Shown here: one piece after another, positions 1 through 16,003 of the stretch | Numbering within the stretch: the stretch's first letter is position 1 | Layout: each line of letters opens with the position of its first letter | From: an uncultured virus (IMG/VR IMGVR_UViG_3300025284_000066) | Lineage: Duplodnaviria > Heunggongvirae > Uroviricota > Caudoviricetes | Direction: 5' to 3' (one strand) | Length of the DNA stretch: 20,000 bases | IMG/VR virus record: IMGVR_UViG_3300025284_000066 | Translations under genes and position numbers: made by a program | The notes under the pieces: generated by a model | The model's input: only the letters and a program-made list of their open reading frames with translations | Told to the model about the DNA's origin: nothing | Database searches by the model: none

Positions 1-67
1 ACTTCGTGACCTGCGCTGAAGCACAGCATGAGGCCAGGACCAGGGCCAAAAAGACGAACTGTTTCAT
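1..67 (-). CDS. 5' end (partial) of a divergent secreted protein, MKQFVFLALVLASCCASAQVTK...
   Basis: Not in the ORF track. ATG at 67 on the minus strand, GGAGGT 7 nt upstream, TAACAT -10-like hexamer at 93-98 (minus). Typical Sec signal peptide ending ASA|Q. Runs off the window edge. Confidence 0.75.
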   Translation of the reverse strand, partial: MKQFVFLALVLASCCASAQVTK

Positions 68-104
68 GTCGCCCACCTCCAATTTTTGCGAAATGTTACT
101 CGCA

Positions 105-145
105 CCCCCGTGGGGTTCGACTGGCGCGCCGGCTCTCCGAAAAAT
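105..145 (+). promoter_or_regulatory. Repeated phage promoter-like motif, copy 1 (CCCCCGTGGGGTTCGAC-N18-AAAAAT)
   Basis: Near-identical 17-mers at 2216-2232 and 16004-16020. All three are intergenic and upstream of + strand late genes. Confidence 0.65.
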
Positions 146-174
146 GGCGCGCATCGAGATCGAGAGGTAGACCC

Positions 175-2193
175 ATGCACGGCTTCAAACCCGCCACCAA
201 GCGCGCCCAGGCGCAACACCTTGCCGAGGGAGGCCTTGTGCGCGGCTTGGTGCGCAAGGTGATGGGCATTCCCGAGCCCACAGACACGGGCGCCGCGGCG
301 CCGGCGGCCACACCAGCTGCGCCGCCTCCCGCGCCAGCGCCGGCCCCCGAGAAGGCGATCACCCAGTACGCGGGCATGGGCGCGACCGAGCGTCGCATGA
401 AGGCCATGGGCCTGAAAGACGGTGGGCCGGTGCGTGGGCCGGGCACCGGCACCTCCGACAGCATCGAAACCGAGGTTCGACCGGGCAGCTACATCATGCC
501 GGCGGACTCCACCGAGCAGCTTGGCGAGGACGGCGTGGCTGCATTGGGCTTCAGCCCGGAGAAGGTGCCGGTGAACCTGAGCAACGGCGAATACCAGCTC
601 CCGCCCGAGCACGTACATGCTGTCGGCGTGGAGGCGCTCGACGCGATCAAGGACGCTACCCATGCATCGGCCCCAGGCCCGCGCGGTTTCGCGCCGAGCG
701 CGGCCGAACCGCCGGTATTCTTCGCCGACGGTGGGCTGGTTGATGAAGATCCCCGTAAGGCGCGCACCCCGCCACCCGCTGCTTCACTGGATGTCAGCGC
801 CAGCATCCCTGCGCCCTTGCCGATGCTGACGGCCTCGCTGCCGCCCAGCCCGCAGGCGCTGCAGCTGGCCGCCAACGAGAGGGCCGCTGCCGCGCCCGCA
901 CCGGCGCCCTCGTCGCAGACGAGCCCACTGGCCCAGACCCAAGGGGCCGCATTCGGCGTATTCAGGCGTGAGCCGACGGCGGGGACGCGAGGCGGCATGA
1001 TGCAGCCCTACGTTGCAACCGGCCCCGCGTCGTTCGAGCCAGCAAAGGTGCAGGAGGGCACAGGACGGCTCGATGCATTCAACGATCCGCGCTCGACGTT
1101 GTTCAAGGGCGAGGCTGATGCGGCACCTGCGCCGACCAGCCGAGGATTCGCCGGTGTGGGCGAAGGCTGGGGCAGTGGCGCGAAGCCTGTGGCAACGACC
1201 GTCGCCCCGGCAGCGCCACCCGCGGTCCGCCCGGCTGCCGCCCCTGTAGTCGCGCCGACCGCACCTGCTGTCTCGAACGATGCACCGGCGAGCTCGGCGG
1301 CACCGGCTGCGAGCCAGGTCATGCCGGGCGTGTTCAGGCAGGGCAACAGCTACGGCGACTCGCCGGCCGCCGCCGCGGCGGGCTTCGCGCCACGCTCGGC
1401 GCCGAGCGCGCAGAACATGGCTGCGGCCGACGCGCTCGAGGCGCGTGGCATCGCAGAGCGAGCCGGTGAGCGAGCTGCTGCAGCTGGAGGCTCGGCAGCC
1501 GGGTTCGCACCTGGTAACGGCCTGACGGTGATCGGAGACGACACCCACGCGGATCGTGTGCGCCGGAGCGCGTTCGGCGCGGCGAGCACGCCGTACCGAG
1601 GATCGCCAAACGGACAGCTCACAGCCAACCAGGTGCGTGTGCTGGCCGGCATGGACGAGGCAAACGGTCGAAACGCGCTCCAGCGCGACACCACCGCCGC
1701 TAACAATGCCGCTTCGCTGGAGCGCGAAGCGATCCAGCAGGCTGGCGCCTCCGGCCGGACAGCGGTGCAGGAGGCGGGCGCCAATGTTCGTGCGGGCGCT
1801 ACCAACGATGTGCAGCGTGGCGAATTGGCCCTGCGGCAGGAGGCACAGGGGTTCCAAACTCGCGGCGCCCAGCGCGTGGAGAAGCTGTACGAGCAGTACG
1901 AGAAGGCCAAGCCCGAGGAGCGGGCGGCCATCGCAGAGCAGATCCGCACGATGACGGGCAAAGAGCACCCGAGCCGCTTCACCGTGGTGCCCGGCGGGCA
2001 GGAAATCGACCCGACCACCCAGCAATCCGTCACCAGGCCGGCGCGCGTCTTCAACAACCAGACCGGCCAGTTCGTCGAACAGGGTCAGGCGCCGCGAGCC
2101 GGCCTCCCTCCGGGGATGACCCGGCAGATTGGCACTTCCAACGGGAAGCCCGTCTACGAGGATGCACAGGGCAAACGGTTCATCGGCAGCTGA
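175..2193 (+). CDS. Phage virion/ejection-type protein (672 aa), Ala/Pro-rich, with GGPVRGPGTGTSDSI...LSNGEY motif
   Basis: GAGGT SD at 164-168 supports ATG 175 rather than 28. The GG.V.GPGT.TSDSI / LSNGEY motif is familiar from phage tape-measure and internal virion proteins. Lies directly upstream of the giant virion protein. Confidence 0.7.
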   Translation: MHGFKPATKRAQAQHLAEGGLVRGLVRKVMGIPEPTDTGAAAPAATPAAPPPAPAPAPEKAITQYAGMGATERRMKAMGLKDGGPVRGPGTGTSDSIETEVRPGSYIMPADSTEQLGEDGVAALGFSPEKVPVNLSNGEYQLPPEHVHAVGVEALDAIKDATHASAPGPRGFAPSAAEPPVFFADGGLVDEDPRKARTPPPAASLDVSASIPAPLPMLTASLPPSPQALQLAANERAAAAPAPAPSSQTSPLAQTQGAAFGVFRREPTAGTRGGMMQPYVATGPASFEPAKVQEGTGRLDAFNDPRSTLFKGEADAAPAPTSRGFAGVGEGWGSGAKPVATTVAPAAPPAVRPAAAPVVAPTAPAVSNDAPASSAAPAASQVMPGVFRQGNSYGDSPAAAAAGFAPRSAPSAQNMAAADALEARGIAERAGERAAAAGGSAAGFAPGNGLTVIGDDTHADRVRRSAFGAASTPYRGSPNGQLTANQVRVLAGMDEANGRNALQRDTTAANNAASLEREAIQQAGASGRTAVQEAGANVRAGATNDVQRGELALRQEAQGFQTRGAQRVEKLYEQYEKAKPEERAAIAEQIRTMTGKEHPSRFTVVPGGQEIDPTTQQSVTRPARVFNNQTGQFVEQGQAPRAGLPPGMTRQIGTSNGKPVYEDAQGKRFIGS

Positions 2194-2215
2194 TGACGGG
2201 GCGCCGCAGAGCGCT

Positions 2216-2256
2216 CCCCTGTAGGGTTCGACGCACAGAGCGCCCGTCGGAAGACT
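2216..2256 (+). promoter_or_regulatory. Repeated phage promoter-like motif, copy 2 (CCCCTGTAGGGTTCGAC-N18-AAGACT-N6-ATG)
   Basis: Same 17-mer and spacing. ATG 2263 lies 6 nt after the hexamer with no obvious SD, suggesting a leaderless transcript. Confidence 0.65.
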
Positions 2257-2262
2257 GGCGCA

Positions 2263-5200
2263 ATGGCTGGCGAAACTCTCAAGCCCTTCGACGGGCAACT
2301 CGATACCACACCGCACAACCTCACCCCGTTTTCGGGTGAGCTCGATCCGCCCGATGCAAAGCGCACCGTGCTCGGCACCGTAAAGGATGTCGGGGTCACG
2401 GCGCTGAAGGGCGCGGTCGGCCTTCCGCAGAGCGTCGTCGGCCTGGCTGACATCGTGACGGGCGGCCGCGCTGGCAAAGCTCTGGAGCAGGCCGGCGTCG
2501 GCTTCGAGGAGACACAGAAGTTCCTCGACGACCAATATTCCGACGCGCAGAAGGCCGCCAACCGCAAGGTGCAGGCGGCCGATGGCTTCGTCGATACGGC
2601 CAAGACCATGCTGGAGAACCCCAGCACCATCGCTACCAGCGTGGGCGAGTCGATTCCACAGATGCTCGGCGGCGCGGGCGTCGCGCGCGGCTTGCTCAAG
2701 GTGGCGCCCAAGATTGCGCCGGCCATCGCTGGCGCCATCGGTGAGGGCGTGCTGGGAGCGGGCTCGCAGGCCGAGCAGATCCGCCAAGAGACGCAGGACG
2801 GGTTGCTCACCCCGAAGCAGGCGGCTCTGTCCGCCGCGACCGGTGCCGCTACTGCTGGCTTCGGTGCACTCGGCGGACGCCTGGCGCAGCGCCTTGGCAT
2901 CGGCGATGCCGACACGATGCTGGCGCAGGGAGCCATCCACGGCGCCGGGCCCGCCTCGCAGCGTTCGCTCGCGCGCCAGGTTGGCGCTGGCATGCTGTCC
3001 GAGGGCGTGCTCGAAGAGCTGCCGCAGTCGATGTCCGAGCAGGCGCTGCAGAACCTCGCGCTGGACAAGCCCGTCGGAGAAGGTGTCGGCAAGGCCGCCG
3101 CCGCCGGGTTGCTCGCGGGCGGCGCCATGGGCGGCGGGGCCGCGCTGTTGCACGGCGCGACTGGTCAGCATGCCCCGAATCAGGCGGAGCCCGGTAGCGC
3201 GGAGCGCGTGCCCGGCGAGCAGCTCTCGCTGTTGCCGGTGGACGAAGCTCCGGCAGCCGCGGCGGCGAGCGAGCTGCCCGCCGTTGCGGGTGGCCTGGCC
3301 AGCGTGCAGCGCACCTTCGATCCGCGCGACCCGGGCAGCCGGCCGCCGCTGGACGTGATGCCCACGGCCCCCACCGATGGAGTGGAGTTCGAGGCGGCGC
3401 CGCAGGTCGCGCGCGAGTTCAGCACGGGCAATCTTTCGCTCGCTGATGAAGCACAGCCCGTGCGCCCCTCCGAAAAGATGGGGCTGGACCCTGCAGCAGG
3501 CCCGCTGTCCACTGCCGCCGCGATGGCGGTGGATGGTGGCGCGCACGACGTGATGAACGCGGCCGCTCAACTCGCCGCTCAGGCCGAAGCCGCCGACGGC
3601 AAGGGCACGAAGCCGGCAGCAGCTTCTCCGGCACCCGCCAGTGTGCCGATGGCGAACGTCAACGCCGAAACCGGCGAGATCTCCGGACAACCGCAAGACC
3701 GAGAGGCCGAACTGCGGGCACGCCTGGAGTTCGTGCGCCAACAGGCCGCGTCGAACGGCTGGGACCAGCGCCTGATCGCCGAGCGCGACAGCGCGCGAGC
3801 TGAACTGGCCGCACTTGCGCCCGCTGCCGCAGCGCCGACCAGCGTGCAGGAGGGCATCGCTCAAGCGCGCGCCCGCCGCGCAGCGCCCGAATCCGCACCG
3901 CAACCCAAAGGAGAAGCCCTTGGCACTCAAGCCGACCAAGCCCAGCAAGCAGGCACGCAACAAGCGCCGGCAGGAACAGAAGCGCCAGCAGCTGAGCCAA
4001 TCGCGTCCGCCACAACGCTGACGCCCGCGCCGGCAGCACCGGCTGTACCGAACGCGAAGCGCGAGAAGGCGGTGCGCCGCGTGGAAGAAGGGCGCGCATG
4101 GTTCTTGTCCCGCGACAAGGCGCAGTCCTTCGTGGACACGTCGGGCCTCGCGGACACGCACGAAGTGGTGCCGGACAACCGCCGTTTCGTTGTGCAGGCC
4201 AAGGCCGAGCAGCCGGCACAGGATGCGCAGCCGCAAACCGCTGCGCCGGCCGATCAGCTGGCGGACCTGCGCCGCCGACGCGCCGAGGCCGAGCCGGGCA
4301 CGCCCCTGCGCCGCGACATCGATAACGACATCGCGGCGTTGGAGCGCGAACAGCAGCAAGCAGTTCGCCGGCCTGAAGCGGTAGCGCCGGTGGATGCTGC
4401 GGCGAACGAAGCCGCCACCAGCCCGCAGAACGACCTGCCCGAGCCTAGTCAGGCCCAGAAAGAGGCGGGCAACTACAAGATGGGCCACCTGTCCGGTGAC
4501 GAGGTACAGGGCCTGCGCATCAGCGTGGAGAACCCGCACGGCAGCACGCGCAGCGGCACCTCGCCGGACGGGACCGAGTGGAGCAACACGATGGCCGCGC
4601 ACTACGGCTACGTGAAGGGCTCCGAGGCAGCAGACGGCGACCACGTGGATGTGTTCGTCGGGCCGGCAGCCGCGACAGCACCGACGGTCTACGTGGTGGA
4701 CCAGATCAACGCGGATGGCTCCTACGACGAGGCCAAGGCGCTGATGGGGTTCAACAGCGAAGCCGAGGCCTTGGCCGCCTACAAGGGGAGTTACAACAAG
4801 GGCTGGAAGGTCGGTCCGGTCACCGCGATGTCGATGGACGACTTCAAGGCTGCGCTCGCGGACGGGCGCCTGAAGAAGCCGCTCTCGTCCACATTGAGCG
4901 AGTCCGTGCGCGAATCCTCGCCCGCTCCAGCAGCGCAGCGCGCTACGACGATGGAGACGGCGCGCACCGCGCTGGCTTCGTACTTCGATTGGTATCTCAG
5001 CCGCAATCCGAAGGCATCCCGTCCGATGGGCGGGATCTATCAGGGCAACAGCTTCACGCTCGACTCCGGCGGCGCGCCATTCACGAAGGCGGGCCAGGTG
5101 CAGGTGAACGGCTTTAAGGAACTGACCTTCAACTACACGGCCGCGTGGAAAGAGGCTCAGTCGCGCGCCGCCGCAGCAGCGCCGGCCGCCGCCCCGATTG

Positions 5201-8200
5201 CTGCTACCAACGCAGGAGACGAAAATGGACGAAATGCAGGAACTGTACCGACCGAACGACTACCCGCCGCCGATCAAGGAAGCGATGCGCGCGATGCCGG
5301 CGCTGGCGACCGAGATCGCCAACCGGTGGATGCTCGGGTGGCCGAAGCGGGTGAAGGCGCTGATCGAGGCGAGCGAGTTCCTGCGGGCGCTGAAGGAGCA
5401 GGAGGAGGCCGAGCGGAGGGCGTACAGCGACTCCGGGAATCGGCACCTGGCGAGGCACGAGATAGCCGAGTTGTACGGCCTGAGCGACAGTCCGCCGACG
5501 CTGTAGCCGACCCGGCGACCGCCGAGGCCTCGCCAAAGCCCGAGCTCGACCAGTCGGGCGACCACACGCTGGATGCCGACGATATCGGCAAGGGTGGGCT
5601 CACCAAGAAGTACCGCGACAACATCGCTGCCATCCGCATCCTGAAGGCGCTCGCCAGCGAGAGCCGCAAGGCCACCCCGGAGGAGCGCAAGCAGATCGCG
5701 CGCTACGTCGGCTGGGGTGCGCTGAAGGGCGTGTTCGACCCGCAGAACAAGCAGTGGGCCAAGGAATTCGCCGAGCTGCGCGAGTTGTTGACCGATGCCG
5801 AGTACAAGGCCGCTCGCGCGTCGATGCTGAACGCGCACTACACGGCGCCGGTGGTGGTCAACGGCATCTACGATGCGCTCGAGCGCATGGGGTTCACCGC
5901 TGGCCGCGTTCTCGAACCGGCGGTGGGAACCGGCAACTTCTTCGGCCTGATGCCCGCGAGCATGCGCAAGCGCTCGCAGCTGCATGGCGTGGAGCTGGAC
6001 CCGCTCACCAGCCAGATCGCGGCGGCGCTGTATCCGAGCGCCAAGGTGGCGCGGGCCACCGCGTTCCAGGACTTCCAGGCCCCGTCCGAGTACTTCGACC
6101 TGGCGGTGGGCAATCCGCCATTCGGCTCGGAGCCCATCGTCGATGACGACCGCTCGCCGTATTCGGGTTTCTCGATCCACAACTACTTCTTCGCCAAGAG
6201 CATCGACAAGCTGCGCCCCGGTGGCCTGCTGACTATGGTGGTGTCGCACAACTTCCTTGACGCCAAGAACGAAGCAGCACGGCAGTGGATCGCCGATCGG
6301 GCCAACCTGGTGGCAGCGGTCCGGCTGCCGCGAACCGCGTTCAAGGAGAACGCCGGCACCGACGTGGTGACCGACATCGTGGTGCTCCAGAAGAAAACGG
6401 AATCCGAGCGCGCGAACGGATTGGGCGATGCGGCGTGGGTGAAGGTCGGCCAGCAGACCCTCACCAACCCGAAGACCGGCGAGGCGACGCAGCACAACGT
6501 CAGCAGCTACTTCCTGACCAATCCCGATGCGGTGCTGGGCACGCCGGTGGCGGCCGGAGCGATGTATCGCCTGGGCGAGTACACGGTGGAGCCCTCTGGC
6601 GATCTGGCGCAACAGCTGAAGGCATGGGCCACCGCGCTCCCGGAAGACCTCTATCAGCCTGTGGAGCGCACGCACGAGCAGGAAGCCGCCGACGTGGTGG
6701 TGCCTGACGGTGTGAAGGTCGGTTCGTTCTACGTGGACGACAGCGGCCGCGTGCAGATGCGCGGCCCGGATTCGCTGGGCAACCGAACGGCAGAGCCGTG
6801 GACGCCGCCCAACGTGAAGGCTGCCGAGCGCATGAAGGGGATGGTGGGCCTGCGCGACGCGCTGCGAGCACAGATGCGCCTGGAGCGCTCCCCGGACTCG
6901 ACCGACGGACAGATCGAGCAGCACCGCCGCGAGTTGAATCGCCTCTATGACGGGTTCCAGAGCAAGTACGGCTACCTGAACGACCCGACCAACCGCCGCA
7001 TCTTCCTGGACGACACCGAGTCGGCCCTGGTGCTGGCGCTGGAGTTCGACTACGACCGTGGCGTGAGCAAGGCGGTGGCCGAGCGCGAGGACATCGAACC
7101 GCGTGCGCCCAAGGCGATCAAGGCCGACATCTTCGCGCGGCGCGTGATGTTCCCGCCCGCGGACAACATCAAGGTGAGCAACGCCAAGGACGCGCTGCTG
7201 GCCAGCCTGAACTACAAGGGCCGGCTGGATGCCGCCTACATGGCGACGCTGTACGACAAGTCTCCGGCCCAGATCGTGTCGGAGCTTGGTGACGTGGTGT
7301 ATGCCGACCCGGTGAATGGGCTCGTGATGGCCGACGAATATCTGTCGGGCGACGTGAAGACGAAGCTGGCCGAAGCAGAAGCCGCCGCGCGTGACGACCC
7401 GGCGCTGCGCCGCAACGTGGAGGCCCTGCGCAAGGTCATTCCGGCCGACAAGCGGCCGAGCGAGATCCACGCGGCCATGGGCGCGGCTTTCATTCCACCG
7501 GAGCTGTTCCAGCAGTTCGCCAAGGAAGTGACCGGCGCCGAAGCGCGCGTCACCTACCTGCGCGCTACCGGCCAATGGCTGGTGGACTACACGTCCCAGC
7601 CCAACCCGGCGCTCAACACGGCGAAGTGGGGCATTGGCAGGATGACCGCGCAGAACATCTTCATGCGCACGATGGCCGGCCAGGGCGTGGTGGTCACGGA
7701 CACCATCCGCGACCCGAACGGTGGTACCCGCACCGTGGTGCTGGAGAAGGAAACGGAGGCCGCGCGCGAGAAGCAGGCCGCGATGAAGGCCGAATGGCAG
7801 CGCTGGCTGTGGAGCGACCCTGAGCGCGCCGACCGTGTGGCGGGCATCTACAACGACAAGATGAACCGCATCGTGGTGCGGCGCTTCGATGGCTCGCACA
7901 TGACCTTCCCGGGCATGTCGCCCGCGATGGAGTTGCTGCCGCACCAGAAAGATGCCGTATGGCGCGCGCTTCAGCAGCGCCAGATCCTGCTGGATCACGT
8001 CGTCGGTGCTGGCAAGACCTTCGAGGTTGTGGCTGCCATCATGGAAATGCGCCGGCTGGGCATCGCGCGAAAGCCAATCGTCACGGTGCCCAACCACCTC
8101 ACCCTGCAGTGGCGCAGCGAGTTTTCGCGCCTGTACCCGGCGGCCAACGTGCTGGCGGCCACGCCCGATGACTTCACCAAGGGCAACCGGGAGAAGTTCT

Positions 8201-11200
8201 TCTCCAAGATCGTCACCGGCGACTGGGATGCCGTCATCATCGGCCACTCCAGCCTGAAGAGGATCGCGCTGCCGGCCGAAACGGAAAAGGCCGTGCTGGA
8301 AGAGCAGATTACCGAGCTGGCCGACAGCATCGGCGAAATGAAGCGCGCCCGCGGCGACCGGAATGTCGTGCGCGACATGGAGAGCATCAAGGCCCGCCTG
8401 GAAGCCCGCATGAAGCAGCGCGTGCAAGCCCTTGGCGAGCGCGACAAGGTGGTGACCTTCGACGAGCTCGGCGTCGATGCTTTCGCCATCGACGAGCTGC
8501 ACGAGTTCAAGAACCTCTTCTACAACTCCACCATGGAGCGCGTGCCCGGCATGGGCAACCCCGGCGGCTCGGACAAGGCGTTCGACCTGTTCGTGAAGGC
8601 GCAGTACCTCTTCGACGCGCTGGGGGACAAGGCGCCGCTGATGGGCGCGACCGGCACGCCGGTTTCCAACAGCCTGGTGGAAATGTTCAATATGCAGCGG
8701 TTCCTGCAGTACCCGACGCTGAAGGCGCAGGGCCTGCACGTCTTCGACGCCTGGGCCAAGCAGTTCGGCAGCGTGGAATCGCTGTACGAGGTGTCGCCGT
8801 CTGGGACCGGCTACCGCCAGGCCTCGCGCTTCGCCAAGTTCAAGAACCTGCCGGCGCTGATGGGCATGTACCAGACCTTCGCCGACACGGTGACGCTGGA
8901 CGATCTGAAGGCGCAAGAGGAAGCCCGAGGCCGCACATTCCCGGTGCCGCAGGTGGCCGGCGGCCGCCCGGTGAACGTGGTGGCGAAGCGCTCGCCGGAG
9001 GTGGCCAACTTCATGGGCGTGCCGCAACTGGACATCCAGGGCGGGCGAGTGCAGTTCGGGTTCAACCCGGCCGCTGGGGAGCGCGCAGTTATCGAGAAGG
9101 CCGAGGACGGCAACAGCTGGCGCGCCGAAACCCGCGTGCCGCAGCCCGACGAGAAGGAGATTCGGCAGCTGATCGGCTCGGCCAAGACCGAAGAGGATGC
9201 CAAGCTGCTGGTGGTCGAAGCCGCCCTGTCGCCCAAGATCAAGGTGGACCCGAAGTCGATCCTCGGCCAGTTCGCCGACCTGAAGCGGCTGACGAAGGAA
9301 ACGAAGGGGAAGGTCAACGCGCTGTCGCTGACCGGCCAAGCCAACAAGGCGGGCTTGGACTTCCGCCTGATCGACCCGTCGGCGCCCGACTTCGAGGGCT
9401 CGAAGATCAATCTCGCCGTCGACCGCATGCTGGGCACCTACCAGAAGTGGACCAGCGACCGAGGAACGCAACTGGTCTTCTGCGACCTGTCCGTGCCCCT
9501 CTCGGCACGCAGCGGCTTCGGCAGCAAGGAGCGGCGCGTGTACGTGCGAGACGACGGCGCCCTGGTGCACAAGAAGGGCACCATGCACACGGTTCGCGGC
9601 CACGAAGACTTGCCGTTCTTCGTGGTGAAGGAGGGCGGCAAGGACGCCAAGGCCTTCGCCATCTACGACGCCGCCACGGGCTTGCGCGTGCACGCCGGCC
9701 TGCCGGCCAAGGGCATTGCGACCGACTGGGCGGCGCAGGCCCTGAACGACGACGGCCGCCGCCAGCGCTGGATCGACGCCCGCGACCGCATCGGCGACCT
9801 CCAGCAGGACGAGATCGACGACTACAACAACGCCAACGAGATCGACACCGAGGAAACCGAATCGATCTCGCTGGCCGACATCGCAGGCATGTCGGGAGCC
9901 ACCGCGTTCTCGGTGTACGACGACATCAAGGGCAAGTTGATGGCGCGCGGCGTGCCGGAGCGCGAAATCGCCTTCATCCACGACTACAACACGCCCGCAG
10001 CGAAGGACAAGCTGTTCAAGGCGGTGAATCGGGGCGACATCCGCTTCCTGCTGGGCTCCACGCCGAAGATGGGCGCCGGCACCAACGTGCAGGAGCGCCT
10101 GGTCGGGCTGCATCACATTGACGCGCCCTGGCGCCCGAGCGACCTGGAGCAACGCGAGGGCCGCATCATCCGCCGCGGCAATGCGCTCTATGCTCGTGAC
10201 CCGGATGGTTTCGAGGTGGAAATCTACCGCTACGCCACCGAGCAGACCTACGACACCCGCCGGTGGCAGATCCTGGAGCACAAGGCTCGCGGCATCGAGC
10301 AGCTGCGTAAGTACGACGGCACCCTCAACGAGATCGACGACATCGAGGGGGAGGCCGCCAACGCGGCCGACATGAAGGCCGCCGCCTCGGGCGACCCGCT
10401 CATCCTGGAAGAAACACGGCTCCGCAACGATGTGCGCCGCCTCGAATCACTGCAAGCCTCCCACGCGGACGAAACGGCTTCGATGGTGCGCCAGGCGCGC
10501 GACCAACAACGCTTCGCGCAAGACTGGGGCCCGAAGGAGCTGGAAACGTTCCGAGGTCTGCAGGCTGCCGCCGAGGCCAACCCGGTGCCCAAGGATGGCT
10601 TCGCTGGCCTGACCGTTGCCGGGAAGACGATCACCGACCGCGAAGCGGCTATCAAGGCCGTCAAGCGGGGCATCGATCGTGTGTTCGTAAGCGGCGGGCA
10701 GGAGGAGTTCCAGTACCGAGGCGTGACCTTCATGCTGGAAGGCACGCCCGACCACGTGGAGCTCAATTCGCCCACCGGTGGGCTGGATTCCTATCGGCCG
10801 GCCAGGGACGTGCTGCCGTCGGCGGCGGGCATCCTGACCCGCTTCGGCAACTACATCAACCGTCTCCCGGCGCACATCGTCGACCTCGATGCGAAGATCA
10901 CGGAAGCGAAGCAGGCGGCAGTGCAATTGCGCGAGCAGGCCGGCAAGCCATTCGCCCAGGCGAAGGAGCTGGAGTCAGCACGCGAGGCACATCGCCGGGT
11001 GCAGCGCCGGCTCGTGGCGAAGGGGCCGGACATCCCGCTGAACCAGCGACCCGCCCTGCAGAAGGCCATGGCCGAGCAGCGCCAGCAGCTCATCGAGCAG
11101 GGGTTCGGGGATACGCTCGAGGAGTTCGGCGGTGGCGCCGACGATGCGCAGTTCCGCCGGGACGGGACCGAAATGCTGTCGCCCGAGGCAGCCAGAGCCA

Positions 11201-14200
11201 TGCGGGCGCTCCTGCCCAACTACTCGCCGCAGGCTCGCGCACAGGCTGTAGCGTCTGTGACCAAGACGGTGGAGGCGATTCGCGCCGGTTGGGGCAACGG
11301 GCCCGAGGTGATCGTGGCGTTCGACATGGGCGACCCGGTTGTGCCCGGGGCGGCCCGCCGCGCGGACCTGAAGCAGCGCAGCGGCGGCGCACGGGGCGCT
11401 CCCGAGGGCTTCTACTACCGTGGCAAGGCCTACTTGATGGCCTCGCGGCTGCCCACGGCCAACGATGCGGCGCGCGTGCTCTTTCACGAAGTACTCGGCC
11501 ACCACGGGCTGCGCGGCCAGTTCGGCAAGGGGCTGGATGACGTGCTGAACCAGATCGGCACCATGCGCCGCGCCGACGTGGACGCGAAGATCAATGAATA
11601 CGGGCTGCGCGGCGTCAACAAGCTCGACCGGCGCGCCGCGGCGGAGGAAGTCCTGGCCGAAATGGCGCAGACCCATCCCGAACTGCACTTCGTGCGTCGC
11701 GCCATCGCCGCGATCCGCACCTGGCTGCGCGAGCACGTGCCGGGCTTCAGCAACCTGCGGATGACGGACGACGAGATCGTGCGCAACTTCATCCTGCCGG
11801 CTCGGCGCTTCGTTGAGCAGGGCGGCCCGGACGGCGGGCCCAGCGACGGGCTGCGCTTCAGCCGTGGTGACGCGGGCCCCGCCTCGACCAACAGCCTCGA
11901 TGCCCCCATCGCCGCCGACGACGACGGTGTAGCGAACTTCTGGCACTGGTACAGTGGGCAGGATGGAAGCCTCAAAGACACCCGAAGCGGCACGCAAGGA
12001 TCTGGAGGAACTGCTGGCGGAGCTGCCGCCGGTGGGCCCGGCCGAGATGGCGGCGCATCTGGGCGACTCGGACCCGTTGATGCGCAAGGCCGCCCGCTCG
12101 TATTTTTCCACGGCACGCGAGACGACTTCACCGCGTTCGATACCGAGCACCCAAACCGAAAAGACGTAGGCTGGCTTGGCCGCGGCGTCTACGGTGCGAG
12201 CGACCCGGCGGACGCCAACTACTATGCCGGCGCAAAGCGCGGCGGCGGTGGGCAGCGCGTCATGCCGCTGTACTTCGCGGTCACGAACCCCTACGTTGCC
12301 ACGCCGGAAATCAAGGCCCGTCTGAAGCGGGCCACGCAGGCGCAGGTCGATCGCTTCACGGCAAACCTGCGCGCGATGGGGCACGACGGCGTGACGCTCA
12401 CTGCCGAAGATGGCTCGGTGGAGATCGTCGCGTTCGATCCCAGCCAGGTGAAATCGGCCATCGGCAACAGTGGGGCATTCGACGCTGGCACCTCGGACAT
12501 CCGGTTCAGCCGATCCACGGTGCAGGACTTCGCCAAGAAGGCCACCGCCGAGCTCAATAAGACTTTCAATGCGCCCGGCAAGTTGTCCTGGTGGCACAAG
12601 ACCGTGGGCACCATGTACAACCTCGCGGAGCGTTCGCCAGCCTTCAAGGCGGTGTTCGACTCAGCGCAAGGGTTCGTCGACGACGTGAGCTTCTACGCCA
12701 ACGACGCGGCCGAACTGGCGCCCAAGCTGCTGCCGAAGCTGGAGACGTGGCGCGACATCAAGAAAGCGCCGGTGGCCGCGGCCGACAACGCCGCAGTGGC
12801 GAAGCCAGTCTTCGAAGGCACGCTGACCTGGGCGCGAGACGAACAGGGCAAGCCGGTACCGGTGCAGTCGCTCATCGACGCGGCGGCCGAGCTGTCGGCC
12901 GACCAGAAGGCGCAGCGCCTGCTGCGAAACGGGCAGATCGACGAGCGCATGCTGAAGGCATGGCAGGGCATGCCCCTGGAGTCCTACGAGAAGGCTATCA
13001 ATACGCGCTTCGAGTCGCGCATGCTGCAGCCGGGCGTCGTCTGGACCGATGCGGAGCTGCGCTCCATGTTCAAGCTCTCGGACGATCAGATCGCGCTCTA
13101 CCACGAGTTCCGCGAGACGACCGACCGGAGCCTGGACACGATGGCGCGCGCCGACATGCTGCGTTTCGTGGGCGACGATGCCAAGGGCATGCGTGGCATG
13201 GTGATGGATGCGCCGGATGCCCAGGCGGCGGCCGTGCTGCTGCGCGATCACCTGGTGCAGCTGGCCAACGAGCAGCCTGACCGCGCGACCCAGATCCTGA
13301 ATACCGCCAACGGCATCATCGACCGGGCCGACAAGGTGCGCGACCTGCAGGCCCGTGGGTATGCGCCGCTGTCACGCTTCGGCCGCTACTCGGTCGACGT
13401 GGTGGACGCTGCCGGCGAGCGGCAGTACTTCGGCCTGTTCGAGACGGCACGCGAGGCCAACAATATGGCCGCCCAGATGCGGGAGGAGTTCGGCGATGCC
13501 ACCGTCACCCAGGGCACACTGTCGGAGGAGGCCTTCAAGCTCTTCGCTGGCGTGACGCCCGAGACGCTGGAACTCTTCGGCAATGCCCTCGGCCTCGATT
13601 CGACCGGTGACAGCGCGCAGGACCAGGCTTTCCAGGAATACCTGCGGCTGACGAAGACCAACCGCAGCGCAATGCGGCGGCTGATCCATCGCAAGGGCAT
13701 CGCCGGTTTCAGCGAAGACGTGGGCCGCGTGCTGGCTTCCTTCATCTACTCGAACGCGCGCCAGACGGCCGCCGGCCTGCACATGGGCGACCTCGGCGAG
13801 GCGGTGCAGGCCATCCCGAAGGAACAGGGCGAGCTGAAAGATGCCGCCGTGCGCCTGGCCGACTATGTGAAGAACCCGCAGGAGGAGGCGCAGGCGGTGC
13901 GCGGGCTGCTGTTCGCGCAGTACCTGGGTGGCTCGGTGGCGTCGGCGTTCGTGAACATGACCCAGCCTATCGCGGTGACGATGCCGTGGCTGAGCCAGTA
14001 CGGCGGCGCGCGCGCGGCGGCCGCGCAGATCGGCCGGGCCGCGAAGAACATCGCCACGCGCGGCTTCGAATACGAACCGGATCTCGCTGCGGCGCTCAAG
14101 CGCGCCGAGGACGAGGGGACCGTGAGCCCGCAGGAGGTGCACCAGCTGATGGCGCAGGCGCGCGGCGCGAGCTCGCTGCGCTCCGGCGATGGCACGCGCG

Positions 14201-15390
14201 GCGGCGAGCTGCGCGCGATGGGCCAGAACGCGCTGTCGCGCTTGTCGCTGGCATGGGGGAAGCTCTTCGGCGCCGCCGAGCAGGTGAATCGCCGCATCAC
14301 CTTCATCGCGGCCTACCGAACGGCGAAGGCGCAGGGCATCGAAGACCCGGCAGGATTTGCTCGCAAGGCGATCACCGAGACGCAGTTCCTCTACTCGAAG
14401 GCGAACAAGATGGAGTGGGGCAGGGGGGCGATCGGCGGCACGCTGATGACCTTCAAGACCTACTCGGTGGCTTACCTCGAGCTGCTGCACCGCATGTACA
14501 CGCAGGGTGGGCCAGAGGGCAAGCGCGCCGCGCTGCTGGCGCTGGGCATGCTGATGCTGATGGGCGGCGCCGGCGGGCTGCCGTTCGAGGAAGACCTGGA
14601 GGATGCGGTCGACGCGCTGGCGCAGATGCTCGGCTACAACTTCTCGACGAAGAAGGCCCGCCAGGAATTTCTGGAGAGCCTGCTGCCGAAGCCGATCGCG
14701 CAGTTCATCGACAAGGGCGTGAGCGGTCTGCCCGGCGCGCCGCTGGATGTGTCGGGCCGCCTCGGCATGGGCAACCTGATTCCGGGCACGGGCCTGCTGC
14801 TGGAGAAGACCAGCCACGCGCGCGACCTGCTGGAGATCGCGGGCCCGGCCGGCGACTTCGCCAGCCGCATCCTCTCCGGCGGCCGCAGCATGCTCACTGG
14901 CGACGTGGGCGCCGGGCTGCTGGAAATGTCGCCCGCAGCGGTGCGCAACGCGGCCAAGGGCGTGGACATGGCCGCGACCGGCATGTATCGGGATGCCAAG
15001 GGCTACAAGGTGCTGGACACGAACACGCTGGAGGCGGCCCTCAAGGGCATCGGCTTCCAGCCGAACAGCGTGGCCACCATCCAGGAGGCGAACGGCATCA
15101 ACCAGGGCGCGAAGGCGTTCTACAACCTGCGTGCGCAGGAGATCCGGGCGCTGTGGGCACAGGGCGTGTTCGAGGGCGACCAGCAGAAGGTGCAGGAAGC
15201 CCGCGACCAGGTTGCCGCGTGGAACCGGAAGAACCCTGAGCAGCCGATGCTCGTACGCATCCCCGACGTGATGCGCCGGGTGCGGGAAATGCGCAAGTCC
15301 AAAGATGAGCGGATCGCTGATACCGCGCCGCGGGCGATGCGTGCTCAGATGCGCGAAGAGGCGGCTCGGGCACGTGCCGACACCATGTAG
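2263..15390 (+). CDS. Giant polyvalent virion-injected protein (4375 aa): Gly/Ala-rich N-terminus, InPase, DarB-like N6-adenine methyltransferase plus SNF2 helicase, metallopeptidase, ART-PolyVal-like ADP-ribosyltransferase, PLxRFG C-terminal region
   Basis: InPase motifs GNYKMGH/ENPHGSTRSG/YGY/DGDHVDVF (~4400-4875). Methyltransferase LEPAVGTGNF and NPPF (6112-6123). Helicase GAGKT (8005-8019), DELH (8491-8502), ATGTP, QREGRIIRRGN. HEVLGH (11485-11502). FHGT (HGT 12109-12117)...EIVAFDPSQVKS. PLSRFG (13366-13383). Strong GC3 bias in this frame. Confidence 0.92.
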   Translation: MAGETLKPFDGQLDTTPHNLTPFSGELDPPDAKRTVLGTVKDVGVTALKGAVGLPQSVVGLADIVTGGRAGKALEQAGVGFEETQKFLDDQYSDAQKAANRKVQAADGFVDTAKTMLENPSTIATSVGESIPQMLGGAGVARGLLKVAPKIAPAIAGAIGEGVLGAGSQAEQIRQETQDGLLTPKQAALSAATGAATAGFGALGGRLAQRLGIGDADTMLAQGAIHGAGPASQRSLARQVGAGMLSEGVLEELPQSMSEQALQNLALDKPVGEGVGKAAAAGLLAGGAMGGGAALLHGATGQHAPNQAEPGSAERVPGEQLSLLPVDEAPAAAAASELPAVAGGLASVQRTFDPRDPGSRPPLDVMPTAPTDGVEFEAAPQVAREFSTGNLSLADEAQPVRPSEKMGLDPAAGPLSTAAAMAVDGGAHDVMNAAAQLAAQAEAADGKGTKPAAASPAPASVPMANVNAETGEISGQPQDREAELRARLEFVRQQAASNGWDQRLIAERDSARAELAALAPAAAAPTSVQEGIAQARARRAAPESAPQPKGEALGTQADQAQQAGTQQAPAGTEAPAAEPIASATTLTPAPAAPAVPNAKREKAVRRVEEGRAWFLSRDKAQSFVDTSGLADTHEVVPDNRRFVVQAKAEQPAQDAQPQTAAPADQLADLRRRRAEAEPGTPLRRDIDNDIAALEREQQQAVRRPEAVAPVDAAANEAATSPQNDLPEPSQAQKEAGNYKMGHLSGDEVQGLRISVENPHGSTRSGTSPDGTEWSNTMAAHYGYVKGSEAADGDHVDVFVGPAAATAPTVYVVDQINADGSYDEAKALMGFNSEAEALAAYKGSYNKGWKVGPVTAMSMDDFKAALADGRLKKPLSSTLSESVRESSPAPAAQRATTMETARTALASYFDWYLSRNPKASRPMGGIYQGNSFTLDSGGAPFTKAGQVQVNGFKELTFNYTAAWKEAQSRAAAAAPAAAPIAATNAGDENGRNAGTVPTERLPAADQGSDARDAGAGDRDRQPVDARVAEAGEGADRGERVPAGAEGAGGGRAEGVQRLRESAPGEARDSRVVRPERQSADAVADPATAEASPKPELDQSGDHTLDADDIGKGGLTKKYRDNIAAIRILKALASESRKATPEERKQIARYVGWGALKGVFDPQNKQWAKEFAELRELLTDAEYKAARASMLNAHYTAPVVVNGIYDALERMGFTAGRVLEPAVGTGNFFGLMPASMRKRSQLHGVELDPLTSQIAAALYPSAKVARATAFQDFQAPSEYFDLAVGNPPFGSEPIVDDDRSPYSGFSIHNYFFAKSIDKLRPGGLLTMVVSHNFLDAKNEAARQWIADRANLVAAVRLPRTAFKENAGTDVVTDIVVLQKKTESERANGLGDAAWVKVGQQTLTNPKTGEATQHNVSSYFLTNPDAVLGTPVAAGAMYRLGEYTVEPSGDLAQQLKAWATALPEDLYQPVERTHEQEAADVVVPDGVKVGSFYVDDSGRVQMRGPDSLGNRTAEPWTPPNVKAAERMKGMVGLRDALRAQMRLERSPDSTDGQIEQHRRELNRLYDGFQSKYGYLNDPTNRRIFLDDTESALVLALEFDYDRGVSKAVAEREDIEPRAPKAIKADIFARRVMFPPADNIKVSNAKDALLASLNYKGRLDAAYMATLYDKSPAQIVSELGDVVYADPVNGLVMADEYLSGDVKTKLAEAEAAARDDPALRRNVEALRKVIPADKRPSEIHAAMGAAFIPPELFQQFAKEVTGAEARVTYLRATGQWLVDYTSQPNPALNTAKWGIGRMTAQNIFMRTMAGQGVVVTDTIRDPNGGTRTVVLEKETEAAREKQAAMKAEWQRWLWSDPERADRVAGIYNDKMNRIVVRRFDGSHMTFPGMSPAMELLPHQKDAVWRALQQRQILLDHVVGAGKTFEVVAAIMEMRRLGIARKPIVTVPNHLTLQWRSEFSRLYPAANVLAATPDDFTKGNREKFFSKIVTGDWDAVIIGHSSLKRIALPAETEKAVLEEQITELADSIGEMKRARGDRNVVRDMESIKARLEARMKQRVQALGERDKVVTFDELGVDAFAIDELHEFKNLFYNSTMERVPGMGNPGGSDKAFDLFVKAQYLFDALGDKAPLMGATGTPVSNSLVEMFNMQRFLQYPTLKAQGLHVFDAWAKQFGSVESLYEVSPSGTGYRQASRFAKFKNLPALMGMYQTFADTVTLDDLKAQEEARGRTFPVPQVAGGRPVNVVAKRSPEVANFMGVPQLDIQGGRVQFGFNPAAGERAVIEKAEDGNSWRAETRVPQPDEKEIRQLIGSAKTEEDAKLLVVEAALSPKIKVDPKSILGQFADLKRLTKETKGKVNALSLTGQANKAGLDFRLIDPSAPDFEGSKINLAVDRMLGTYQKWTSDRGTQLVFCDLSVPLSARSGFGSKERRVYVRDDGALVHKKGTMHTVRGHEDLPFFVVKEGGKDAKAFAIYDAATGLRVHAGLPAKGIATDWAAQALNDDGRRQRWIDARDRIGDLQQDEIDDYNNANEIDTEETESISLADIAGMSGATAFSVYDDIKGKLMARGVPEREIAFIHDYNTPAAKDKLFKAVNRGDIRFLLGSTPKMGAGTNVQERLVGLHHIDAPWRPSDLEQREGRIIRRGNALYARDPDGFEVEIYRYATEQTYDTRRWQILEHKARGIEQLRKYDGTLNEIDDIEGEAANAADMKAAASGDPLILEETRLRNDVRRLESLQASHADETASMVRQARDQQRFAQDWGPKELETFRGLQAAAEANPVPKDGFAGLTVAGKTITDREAAIKAVKRGIDRVFVSGGQEEFQYRGVTFMLEGTPDHVELNSPTGGLDSYRPARDVLPSAAGILTRFGNYINRLPAHIVDLDAKITEAKQAAVQLREQAGKPFAQAKELESAREAHRRVQRRLVAKGPDIPLNQRPALQKAMAEQRQQLIEQGFGDTLEEFGGGADDAQFRRDGTEMLSPEAARAMRALLPNYSPQARAQAVASVTKTVEAIRAGWGNGPEVIVAFDMGDPVVPGAARRADLKQRSGGARGAPEGFYYRGKAYLMASRLPTANDAARVLFHEVLGHHGLRGQFGKGLDDVLNQIGTMRRADVDAKINEYGLRGVNKLDRRAAAEEVLAEMAQTHPELHFVRRAIAAIRTWLREHVPGFSNLRMTDDEIVRNFILPARRFVEQGGPDGGPSDGLRFSRGDAGPASTNSLDAPIAADDDGVANFWHWYSGQDGSLKDTRSGTQGSGGTAGGAAAGGPGRDGGASGRLGPVDAQGRPLVFFHGTRDDFTAFDTEHPNRKDVGWLGRGVYGASDPADANYYAGAKRGGGGQRVMPLYFAVTNPYVATPEIKARLKRATQAQVDRFTANLRAMGHDGVTLTAEDGSVEIVAFDPSQVKSAIGNSGAFDAGTSDIRFSRSTVQDFAKKATAELNKTFNAPGKLSWWHKTVGTMYNLAERSPAFKAVFDSAQGFVDDVSFYANDAAELAPKLLPKLETWRDIKKAPVAAADNAAVAKPVFEGTLTWARDEQGKPVPVQSLIDAAAELSADQKAQRLLRNGQIDERMLKAWQGMPLESYEKAINTRFESRMLQPGVVWTDAELRSMFKLSDDQIALYHEFRETTDRSLDTMARADMLRFVGDDAKGMRGMVMDAPDAQAAAVLLRDHLVQLANEQPDRATQILNTANGIIDRADKVRDLQARGYAPLSRFGRYSVDVVDAAGERQYFGLFETAREANNMAAQMREEFGDATVTQGTLSEEAFKLFAGVTPETLELFGNALGLDSTGDSAQDQAFQEYLRLTKTNRSAMRRLIHRKGIAGFSEDVGRVLASFIYSNARQTAAGLHMGDLGEAVQAIPKEQGELKDAAVRLADYVKNPQEEAQAVRGLLFAQYLGGSVASAFVNMTQPIAVTMPWLSQYGGARAAAAQIGRAAKNIATRGFEYEPDLAAALKRAEDEGTVSPQEVHQLMAQARGASSLRSGDGTRGGELRAMGQNALSRLSLAWGKLFGAAEQVNRRITFIAAYRTAKAQGIEDPAGFARKAITETQFLYSKANKMEWGRGAIGGTLMTFKTYSVAYLELLHRMYTQGGPEGKRAALLALGMLMLMGGAGGLPFEEDLEDAVDALAQMLGYNFSTKKARQEFLESLLPKPIAQFIDKGVSGLPGAPLDVSGRLGMGNLIPGTGLLLEKTSHARDLLEIAGPAGDFASRILSGGRSMLTGDVGAGLLEMSPAAVRNAAKGVDMAATGMYRDAKGYKVLDTNTLEAALKGIGFQPNSVATIQEANGINQGAKAFYNLRAQEIRALWAQGVFEGDQQKVQEARDQVAAWNRKNPEQPMLVRIPDVMRRVREMRKSKDERIADTAPRAMRAQMREEAARARADTM
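3920..4021 (+). CDS. Candidate overprinted basic peptide (33 aa, MALKPTKPSKQARNKRRQEQKRQQLSQSRPPQR) in the +1 frame of the giant gene
   Basis: AGGAG at 3909-3913, 6 nt before a TTG start. By hand count 26 of 33 codons end in G/C, while the host frame here uses many A-ending codons (CAA, GGA, GCA, ACA). Confidence 0.5.
   Translation: MALKPTKPSKQARNKRRQEQKRQQLSQSRPPQR
5225..5506 (+). CDS. Overprinted 93-aa helical protein of unknown function in the +1 frame of the giant gene
   Basis: AGGAG at 5214-5218, 6 nt before ATG. By hand count 86 of 93 codons end in G/C. The sequence looks globular (EIANRWMLGWPKRVKALI). The host frame here is a G/R/A/D-rich linker with atypical codons (CGA, GGA, CTA, GAT). 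Confidence 0.8.
   Translation: MDEMQELYRPNDYPPPIKEAMRAMPALATEIANRWMLGWPKRVKALIEASEFLRALKEQEEAERRAYSDSGNRHLARHEIAELYGLSDSPPTL
11963..12169 (+). CDS. Candidate overprinted 68-aa protein (MEASKTPEAARKDLEELLAELPPVGPAEMAAHLGDSDPLMRKAARSYF...) in the +1 frame, overlapping the start of the ART domain
   Basis: Extended -10 TGgTACAGT (11947-11955), then 7 nt, then ATG (leaderless geometry). Codon bias favours the +1 frame for roughly the first 48 codons. The host frame there is a Gly-rich low-complexity insert. Confidence 0.55.
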   Translation: MEASKTPEAARKDLEELLAELPPVGPAEMAAHLGDSDPLMRKAARSYFSTARETTSPRSIPSTQTEKT

Positions 15391-15496
15391 TGGTTTGCGC
15401 TCTTCGCGCTGCGGTGCCTACTTTGGGGCGTTGCGGAGCATGAGCCCTCTCCGTAGCCGAATTTGCCCCGCTTGAGCGCGCTATGCTCCTGGAGCC

Positions 15497-15883
15497 ATGA
15501 AGCACTACCTTGCCCTACTTGTCACTCTCGCCAGTTCGAGCTCCGCGTTCGCGCTGACTTTCGCCGGCGCAACTGAGAACCTCCTTTACTTCGAATACGC
15601 CAGGCTCGGGGCTGACTACTGCGAGAGCAAAGGATTTCCCGCTCGTGAGATTCAGAGGAACTGGCAAGCCAAGCACGAGCCTCTGCATAGGCAGAGCATT
15701 CAAACGGTGCGGGGTGAGGGGGCAAGGCGCGGTCTGACAACAGCGACTGAACAGGACGCGCTTCTGGTTGAGGTCATGCGCCCGGTCACCAAGACCGCCC
15801 AGGCCAAGGTGGATGGCGCGGCGATACCGTGCGCAAAGTTCGGCCGACTCATCGAAGGGTTTGGAGCTGATTTCAAACGCTGA
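15497..15883 (+). CDS. Secreted/periplasmic accessory protein (128 aa), function unknown
   Basis: Signal peptide MKHYLALLVTLASSSSAFA, two Cys, weaker GC3 bias than its neighbours, TATGCT hexamer at 15482-15487. Confidence 0.75.
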   Translation: MKHYLALLVTLASSSSAFALTFAGATENLLYFEYARLGADYCESKGFPAREIQRNWQAKHEPLHRQSIQTVRGEGARRGLTTATEQDALLVEVMRPVTKTAQAKVDGAAIPCAKFGRLIEGFGADFKR

Positions 15884-16003
15884 ATAGTTGCCGAGATTGC
15901 GGCGAGAAGCGCCCGCTCCCTGCTGAATTTGGCCCGAAGGTGTGACCGGGCGCCTCCGGCCGAGAGCAGCAGTTCGGCACGGGTAGCCGCTTCCGATCAT
16001 CTA

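Follow-up and report, generated by a model that had tools for sequence, protein, structure and literature searches.

Small +1-frame genes nested at domain junctions of a giant polyvalent-protein gene from an uncultured virus: a probable case of dual coding

The small gene comS of Bacillus subtilis, which encodes a competence regulator, is embedded out of frame within srfA, a giant multi-modular gene. A layout of this kind is found in the DNA analysed here, a stretch of 20,000 nucleotides from an uncultured virus of the Caudoviricetes (IMG/VR record IMGVR_UViG_3300025284_000066; "the window" designates this whole stretch), in which a giant polyvalent-protein gene contains three small open reading frames (ORF1 to ORF3) in its +1 frame. 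These are likewise embedded and out of frame, but comS has another function, is a single case and lies in a non-mobile context. The Rz/Rz1 embedded spanins of phages provide a second comparison. As in the present case, a small +1 gene lies wholly inside a larger phage gene; both genes are functional in Rz/Rz1, and the window has such a pair of its own. However, the host of the three ORFs is a multi-domain gene of 4375 codons that carries them at linkers, where its own frame is constrained only to openness, and the small proteins are predicted to be soluble and helical or basic, not lipoproteins. The embedded spanin class is described in the main text of the JC1 paper, which contains neither "nested" nor "frameshift" and uses "embedded" once, for Rz1.

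The giant gene itself recalls two described systems. Phage P1 has a DarB-type methylase-helicase in common with the window and carries it in the virion; the text of PMC12810830 ties Ulx, DarB and DdrB to protection against EcoB and EcoK and reports that the Dar proteins are incorporated in order. P1 DarB needs small partners, the small accessory proteins of the system being Ulx, DdrA, DdrB and Hdf. Unlike ORF2, however, the P1 gene ulx (146 aa) is not nested but stands apart, adjoining darB on its downstream side, and no nested homologue of either of the two small families described below was found in P1 darB. The second system is that of the polyvalent proteins (Iyer, Burroughs, Anand, de Souza and Aravind 2017, PMC5512222), whose methylase-helicase dyad and N-terminal LPD36 region are described in the main text of that paper; the window giant has their domain set, i.e., InPase, methylase-helicase dyad and ART-PolyVal. 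Out-of-frame nested genes lie outside the polyvalent-protein concept as presented in that main text, where "frameshift" and "overlap" are absent and both uses of "nested" concern a hairpin fold. Full-text literature searches on nesting or overlap within DarB or polyvalent-protein genes listed no paper that describes such a layout.

The giant gene, the three small ORFs and two sequences resembling a Shine-Dalgarno (SD) element are the following:

2263..15390, + strand: giant polyvalent-protein ORF, frame 1, 4375 codons, 4375 aa
3909..3913, + strand: AGGAG, SD-like, 6 nt 5' of the ORF1 TTG, inside a 32-nt stretch invariant among close relatives
3920..4021, + strand: ORF1, frame 2 (+1), TTG to TGA, 33-aa basic peptide; an Ala/Gln/Pro/Thr linker in the giant frame
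5214..5218, + strand: AGGAG, SD-like, 6 nt 5' of the ORF2 ATG
5225..5506, + strand: ORF2, frame 2 (+1), ATG to TAG, 93 aa; a Gly/Ala/Asp/Arg-rich linker in the giant frame
11963..12169, + strand: ORF3, frame 2 (+1), ATG to TAG, 68 aa; its tail overlaps the start of the ART domain

All three small ORFs lie wholly within 2263-15390, on the same strand and in the same +1 phase, as stated in a first-pass annotation made from the sequence alone. Its claims that AGGAG stands exactly 6 nt before two of the starts and that the giant frame remains open although it reads as a low-complexity linker also hold: no stop interrupts it across the islands, and linker composition is found at ORF1 and ORF2. The same annotation saw GC3, the GC content at third codon positions, leave the giant frame at each ORF, and a sliding calculation confirms a frame-2 rise at all three, i.e., at 3826-4050 for ORF1 (0.50-0.60 in frame 1 vs 0.82-0.86 in frame 2), at 5251-5475 for ORF2 (0.42-0.46 vs 0.96) and at 11926-12150 for ORF3 (0.54-0.58 vs 0.72-0.80). 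At ORF2, the frame-1 value is that expected for the second codon positions of a frame-2 gene. Each ORF was also said to precede or overlap an effector domain. ORF1 ends 429 nt 5' of the InPase start (nt 4450), close to the 400 nt proposed, and ORF3 does overlap the ART domain, which starts at nt 12079; ORF2 does lie upstream of the methylase-helicase, and homology to this module begins right after the ORF2 stop.

Since GC3 is open to distortion by linkers, a composition-free substitution test was run. This blind scan considered the variable columns between the window and five related loci (L005, L009, L010, L039 and L011; collected loci are designated by L numbers) in windows of 120 nt over 2263-13400. 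Changes concentrate at frame-2 third positions only at 3883-4002, 5233-5532 and 11938-12102, which are the three ORFs. Composition and substitution pattern together show the three +1 ORFs as real coding islands, across which the giant frame appears to be constrained only to stay free of stops.

ORF2 is almost certainly a real gene under purifying selection. The closest named relative of the giant protein is a 5145-aa "structural protein" of Pseudomonas stutzeri phage 8P, and ORF2 differs from the corresponding 8P sequence at 18/90, 14/90 and 31/90 of the first, second and third codon positions of frame 2. Directly after the ORF2 TAG the pattern flips to 9/65, 24/65 and 6/64, which is that of frame 1. 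Amino-acid identity over ORF2 is 68/90 in frame 2 vs 49/89 in frame 1. Homologues fall into 115 clusters of 69-156 aa (typically about 90 aa) that form an unnamed family, whose alignment reveals the invariant motifs ANRW..GWP and HLARHE, including invariant W, H, R and E residues. ORF2 has the length, the "MQxLYxP" start and the motifs of this family, and shares 100-40% identity with 37 other members; its family-typical "MQELY" start is at 5234. When 1.84 billion representatives were searched with no restriction on length, 93 hits were obtained, of 52-264 aa apart from one 892-aa protein whose match is limited to some 30 residues (query 44-74, one of its six matched stretches); the complete ORF2 domain was not seen in frame within any giant protein. 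The ORF2 product is modelled by AlphaFold as five helices (pLDDT 85). Foldseek found no match to this model in PDB at E <= 0.001, the best VIA-align Z (4.8) is in the noise range for helical bundles, and the ESM Atlas returned only "hypothetical protein" clusters.

The nested layout of ORF2 recurs in its relatives. Seventy-one loci with an ORF2 relative, representing 59 distinct small-ORF sequences, were collected. In 48 of the 49 loci with a downstream methylase-helicase hit, the module is in the phase that makes the small ORF +1, and no stop closes the module's frame anywhere along the small ORF; the sole exception is L061, where the methylase-helicase is in another frame. Counted by distinct small-ORF sequence (n = 59), 40 show nesting, in 10 that frame contains stops, and in the remaining 9 it runs open across the small ORF but closes within 1000 nt. 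In the window, openness at ORF2 is unsurprising because T is rare at third positions: the frame stays open in 20% of synonymous-codon resampling trials, and the probability of being open by chance is 0.20-0.27 for ORF2 and ORF3. This openness is not decisive alone and the case for selection therefore rests on the relatives. Thus, in relatives at 39-48% GC, the same resampling leaves the frame open in 0/2000 trials for L015, L016, L017, L019, L036 and L053 and with a probability of 0.0005 for L052; for L012, it is 0.0035. Furthermore, in 12 nested loci of 39-58% GC (GC content <= 0.58), T-ending codons occur in 0/310 cases ahead of codons starting with AA, AG or GA vs 106/806 ahead of other codons (p = 1.6e-16, a value that overstates significance because these loci are related and the statistics on nested loci ignore kinship), while free-standing copies of the family, which serve as a natural control, have 28/339. 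These data show that selection keeps the giant frame open across ORF2 in low-GC relatives. ORF length was dropped as evidence that ORF2 is coding, being not significant against synonymous shuffles: the longest off-frame ORFs in shuffled low-GC giants (maximum about 105 codons) equal or exceed the ORF of the ORF2 family.

The small gene also has its own initiation signals. The ATG at the "MQxLY" N-terminus is conserved in nested and free copies alike, and a GGAG, GAGG or AGGA core is found 4-13 nt 5' of the nested ATG in 35/42 nested loci vs 9.8% of same-phase control positions. Conversely, none of the first 30 giant-frame codons 3' of the ORF2 stop is ATG, GTG or TTG, and in L018, L026 and L027 conserved methylase sequence already begins 36-39 nt before the stop of the small ORF; the methylase-helicase module thus lacks its own start and relies on the frame upstream. 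Shorter versions on plasmids and chromosomes open the methylase frame with an ATG and a "QLDLFG"-type N-terminus, 40-715 nt 5' of the small ATG, so that the nesting within the 5' part of the methylase-helicase gene is not confined to polyvalent proteins. In RefSeq, the plasmid copies appear as two genes separated by a gap, which leaves the conserved N-terminal region unassigned. A "QLDLF"-like motif, found at the N-terminus of non-polyvalent methylase-helicases, occurs again just 3' of the small ORF in L054 and L070 (window 5509-5580).

The homology limits of the cassette coincide with the small gene. Protein homology between the window and 8P giants starts at aa 986, i.e., at the start of ORF2, and DNA homology to L001, L012, L014 and L041 starts at 5233/5234. 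Judging from these limits, the small gene marks the 5' edge of a shuffled cassette. Conjugative elements also carry free-standing genes of the family. Members stand free in L060, L063, L064, L065, L067 and L068, ahead of an ORF labelled as an Rv2179c-like exonuclease on sub-cutoff Pfam hits in 5/6 of these loci and none in L067. Upstream of free-standing copies lie a MobA/VirD2-LPD7 relaxase (L063, L064 and L067), an ORF with an AAA_30 domain (L060) or a KfrA-like ORF (L065). In L041, the family is nested ahead of an LPD37 domain. In L033 and L034 (7706-7958) and in L051 (2177-2405), the first copy is directly preceded by a diverged tandem paralogue, which likewise occupies the +1 frame of the giant ORF.

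The methylase-helicase module matches 119 phage records, including coding sequences (CDSs) annotated as "DarB-like antirestriction". Only one of them, 8P, has the ORF2 family, while 21 have a second family. At the same slot, the cultured phages PEp14, SopranoGao, Itty13 and POI1126, which come next after 8P in similarity, have another +1 ORF, about 105 aa long ("MNLNxWxSQARxHWK...YLFPPEE"). It is equipped with an SD and an ATG, and its end lies 30-54 nt 5' of the methylase start (frame check in these 4 of the 21 records). This second family matches 21 phage records from 12 named phages, and 21 called clusters; Agrobacterium phage Atu_ph08 is a further cultured carrier. It had been predicted that standard annotation would discard such genes, and this ORF is indeed unannotated under the giant CDS in PEp14, SopranoGao and POI1126; in Itty13, the annotated CDSs are on the opposite strand. 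For the ORF2 family, the sequences collected here indicate a conserved nested layout in dozens of phages and plasmids, missed by standard annotation. In a profile comparison, the same landmarks of the two families align (P = 0.034 and 0.0063, probability 1.5-6%), which is only suggestive of a possible single, distant superfamily. The model of the second family (pLDDT 71) gave no fold match. Sub-threshold hits to TnpV (PF14198) were obtained for three of the four second-family members (15.7-20.7 bits vs a cut-off of 27); none of the 38 ORF2-family members gave a TnpV hit at E up to 1, and no TnpV hit exceeded the cut-off in 401 sampled genomes of the phylum.

Two side observations concern such islands and these phages. 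A +1 island is shared by L041 (9234-9545) and L014 (15384-15503), where a protein-like peptide of about 100 aa ("...AERLRARLCCVPFYAKRAA...") occurs in two different giant ORFs with 58% identity over 41 aa. In L234 (Pseudomonas phage Itty13, NC_070969), the RefSeq CDSs over the methylase-helicase region (1-4419) are opposite in strand to the tblastn match; they are likely an antisense mis-annotation in this 68% GC phage.

ORF3 is the second case in which relatives are informative. Among close relatives, the variable columns in 11963-12078 fall at 11/38 frame-2 third positions vs 2/39 and 2/39 at the other two; thus 11 of the 15 are at frame-2 third positions, while both flanks follow frame 1. 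This frame-2 constraint spans 11963 to about 12078. Between L039 and the window, there are 3 residue changes in the frame-2 peptide vs 12 in the frame-1 reading, and the start and stop of ORF3 are kept in relatives. Eighty ART-PolyVal loci were collected, the smaller alignment A4 being used because A3 was too divergent for the pattern scan. In 53 of the 80, the ART domain is preceded by an uninterrupted lead, "F..WFGDSKVVDxxGKPLVVYHGT", at fixed spacing. The ORF3 island is an insertion of about 36 codons in this conserved lead motif; insertions were found in 7/80 loci (L105-L111), whose ART domains are the closest to that of the window, and the other 73 have no insertion of this type. In L109, L110 and L111, each insertion holds a +1 ORF with an ATG just after the lead motif. 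These ORFs are mutually related (43% over 77 aa and 45% over 44 aa), and window ORF3 resembles them more weakly (33%, partly via the ART overlap). This family is recognised only through the collected ART loci. Based on these comparisons, ORF3 likely represents a truncated version of a small +1 family whose insertion in the ART lead is confined to one subclade.

Two further loci with ART-related sequences were noticed. L110 contains, at about 1080-1500, a fragment of the ART lead ("...PLRLYHGTRDDITAFD"), then a +1 ORF, then a complete ART domain, which looks like a duplicated junction. In L055 (13995-14210; = L101), an open frame of 5132 codons contains a weak ART-like match, 5' of which there is a 72-codon +1 island (GC3 0.83-0.90).

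ORF1 is the least conserved of the three. Its variable columns (14/5/6) favour frame-2 third positions (14/25), and its TTG, AGGAG and TGA are all kept in L005, L009, L010 and L039, the last of which has an 18-nt in-frame deletion, with homology resuming right at the SD. L195, whose InPase is 62% identical, encodes a GTG-started +1 peptide with the same "ALKPxKPSKQ" N-terminus. L014 has another basic +1 peptide at this junction, and L194 and L196 have a different +1 ORF of 69 aa behind the same SD-encoding "NPKE" codons. No +1 ORF was seen at this junction in L011/L192, and ORF1 gave no hit in Pfam, the only library scanned with it. From the substitutions and the kept signals, ORF1 is somewhat more probably coding than not, which falls short of being established. 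By eye, the ORFs of 69-70 aa found upstream of InPase modules behind "NPKE" SD codons in L194 and L196 (about 940-1144, "MLQPHVVFGWQMT...") and in L021 (3106-3315, "MQQSIPLVYEFEMT...") are a possible further nested family.

Taken together, these comparisons of sequences make it quite likely that the giant gene is dual-coding and that the three ORFs are nested genes with separate initiation. Several points weigh against this reading. Ala/Pro/Gln linkers alone raise the apparent +1 GC3, for example at 3376-3900, and the chance openness of the window and the kinship of the nested loci, both mentioned above, limit the statistics. The ORF2 family is also found without a methylase-helicase, and ORF2 and ORF3 match no family in Pfam, PHROG or NCBIfam that would support a function. 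ORF1 encodes a low-complexity peptide of just 33 aa from a TTG start, and some relatives have another ORF in its place or none. Window ORF3 lacks the conserved middle of its family ("PYSDRxxWxxIL ... GP..L..MERR"), its protein searches found only itself or close relatives in a narrow clade, and no clear SD precedes it. The first-pass annotation had proposed for ORF3 an extended -10 element in leaderless position. The sequence pattern is present (TGGTACAGT sits 7 nt 5' of the ATG), but the extended -10-like bases are also the codons of the conserved W-x-W-Y lead motif in the giant frame and a scan for the sigma-70 consensus over 2000-16000 gave no site. Its proposal that each nested ORF travels with the adjacent module applies to ORF2 with the methylase-helicase and to ORF3 with one ART subclade, but neither to ORF1, which is variable, nor to the ORF2 copies found elsewhere. 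Obligate co-occurrence of a small gene with an effector domain was not observed (7/80 ART loci; 1/119 phage module records for the ORF2 family).

The weaknesses of ORF1 and ORF3 lead to the first alternative, in which both would be non-functional, decaying relics of swallowed small genes and only ORF2 would be working. The loss of the relatives' conserved core by window ORF3, the short basic ORF1 with its TTG and its replacement in L194 and L196 or absence from L011/L192, and protein searches without homologues would all fit such a decay. However, relics should not retain changes at frame-2 third positions as both ORFs do (11/15 and 14/25 variable columns), nor a start and a stop in all four to five relatives, nor the 32-nt invariant stretch over the ORF1 SD. 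This alternative is thus unlikely.

SD-like elements can stimulate ribosomal frameshifting, as in prfB and dnaX. Programmed +1 frameshifting into the islands would then yield truncated isoforms of the giant protein with island-encoded C-termini, not separate proteins, and it would account for islands that are all +1 and all end in a stop, for the SD-like elements as stimulators and for the lack of a good SD at ORF3. Nevertheless, it appears improbable, since the N-terminal Met occupies the same family position in nested and free-standing copies, since the small frame is closed by a stop 5-14 codons 5' of the ATG in several nested loci (L016, L036, L024 and L026), and since a full-length in-frame fusion of the ORF2 family was not seen. 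Moreover, in a listing of the sequences upstream of the ORF2-family junction, drawn up with no formal motif search, nothing but the SD and the ATG is conserved. The islands could also act in cis, their translation mattering through ribosome traffic or the folding of the giant protein at domain boundaries, and not through their products. The location of all three at domain junctions and the short low-complexity peptide of ORF1 are compatible with this, but the ORF2 protein is strongly conserved, has a confident predicted fold (pLDDT 85) and is free-standing away from giant ORFs, which makes an action in cis very improbable.

It is even less probable that the giant ORF consists of separate module genes whose frame is open across the islands by accident, with no dual coding. 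With a GC3 of 0.96, the -1 phase of ORF2 would be open in about 20% of synonymous versions, RefSeq does split the plasmid copies, and L013/L040 have one in-frame stop of the giant frame (8750-8752) 440 nt downstream of the nested small ORF, directly after which the methylase-helicase resumes in the same frame; a split gene, read-through or an error in sequencing may account for this. However, there is no stop across the small ORF in the window or in 48 loci, relatives at 39-41% GC are open where chance gives 0/2000, codon pairs that would create stops are avoided, and a module without a start in its first 30 codons, whose methylase sequence begins before the small stop in L018, L026 and L027, could hardly be a gene of its own. 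Finally, chance open frames of a 67% GC genome, with low-complexity linkers distorting GC3 (3376-3900), are scarcely tenable as an explanation even though the window has dozens of off-frame ORFs of more than 100 aa and ORF length is not significant (shuffled maximum about 105 codons), because homology and purifying selection already refute them for ORF2, the blind periodicity scan picks only the three ORFs, starts, stops and SDs are conserved and ORF3 has divergent homologues.

If the three ORFs are separately initiated nested genes, ribosomes in the producing cell would initiate internally on the giant mRNA and make the small proteins alongside the giant protein. The genome-typical codon usage of the small frame, the free-standing family and the linker-like, Gly/Ala/Asp/Arg-rich reading in the giant frame suggest that the small gene was there first, and that it was then overrun by a methylase-helicase ORF growing in the upstream direction, and later by entire polyvalent ORFs. 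The extension would have used the -1 phase relative to the small gene, which is naturally stop-poor; that only this phase is stop-poor could explain why every island found is +1. More generally, giant polyvalent and DarB-like genes could be "operons inside an ORF" that have grown by read-through of small partner genes, many of their junctions still encoding a +1 helper, adaptor or holder, a generalisation that is tentative and on balance unlikely.

As to function, the ORF2 product could act in trans on the adjacent DarB-like module, either as a helper of its assembly or packaging or as a holder of its activity, and ORF3 and ORF1 might, less certainly, serve their neighbours likewise. Such a specific helper or holder role is a guess, more doubtful than probable, drawn by analogy with the small accessory proteins of the P1 Dar system. 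The small products might also be inhibitors or antitoxins that render toxic domains safe, chaperones or regulators, as the first reading of the window supposed, but their co-occurrence with the effector domains is not obligate. The idea of one partner per effector is too tidy, since 73 of the 80 ART loci have no insertion, P1 darB has no nested homologue, the ORF2 family occurs elsewhere and ORF1 is variable.

In some phages, a DarB-like or polyvalent giant occupies a fifth of the genome, and its annotation as a single CDS would conceal conserved small genes that have signals of their own. Cultured phages of Erwinia, Klebsiella, Pseudomonas, Agrobacterium, Ochrobactrum and Vibrio are among those concerned, and the small genes could be missing components of a widespread anti-restriction machine. 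The needs of DarB-type proteins for production, loading and control thereby become directly testable. The locus would also offer a clean natural case of dual coding, in which the small gene is the older one, the new reading is a disordered linker and the selection that keeps the frame open can be measured over a GC range of 39-71%. As long as annotation pipelines disallow nested calls, such genes will go on being missed.

The other features of the giant gene are as follows:

nt 4450-4857, aa 730-865, + strand: InPase domain (Pfam)
5507..11145, + strand: DarB-like methylase-helicase module in the giant frame, beginning directly 3' of the ORF2 stop
nt 6046-6318, aa 1262-1352, + strand: Eco57I-type MTase domain (Pfam)
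nt 7927-8310, + strand: SNF2/ResIII (Pfam)
nt 9958-10179, + strand: Helicase_C (Pfam; with SNF2/ResIII, aa 1889-2639)
nt 12079-12480, aa 3273-3406, + strand: ART-PolyVal domain (Pfam)
nt ~13357-15342, + strand: C-terminal PLxRFG "tail-700" domain (NCBIfam)

Several effector domains are thus carried by one polypeptide, as in polyvalent proteins, and the module has the DarB-like order of an N6-adenine MTase followed by an SF2 helicase. The giant ORF is flanked by a gene for a 721-aa protein, which has a PHROG of unknown function, and by a lysis cassette (endolysin and Rz-like spanin), and these neighbouring endolysin and spanin genes indicate a phage setting. No Rfam match was found in the window (67% GC). 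By domain content, the giant gene is a single frame-1 gene for a polyvalent, DarB-like protein of the virion or ejection type, which may be delivered in the virion, judging from indirect signs in relatives. The 8P homologue carries the annotation "structural protein", and the JC1 DarB-like protein was detected in virions by mass spectrometry according to the text of the JC1 paper. In the neighbouring lysis cassette, the Rz-like spanin ORF (16878-17405, PHROG 312) encloses a +1 ORF (17119-17394) that encodes 91 aa with a signal peptide and an "LNAGC" lipobox, and is a classical embedded Rz1-type o-spanin gene.

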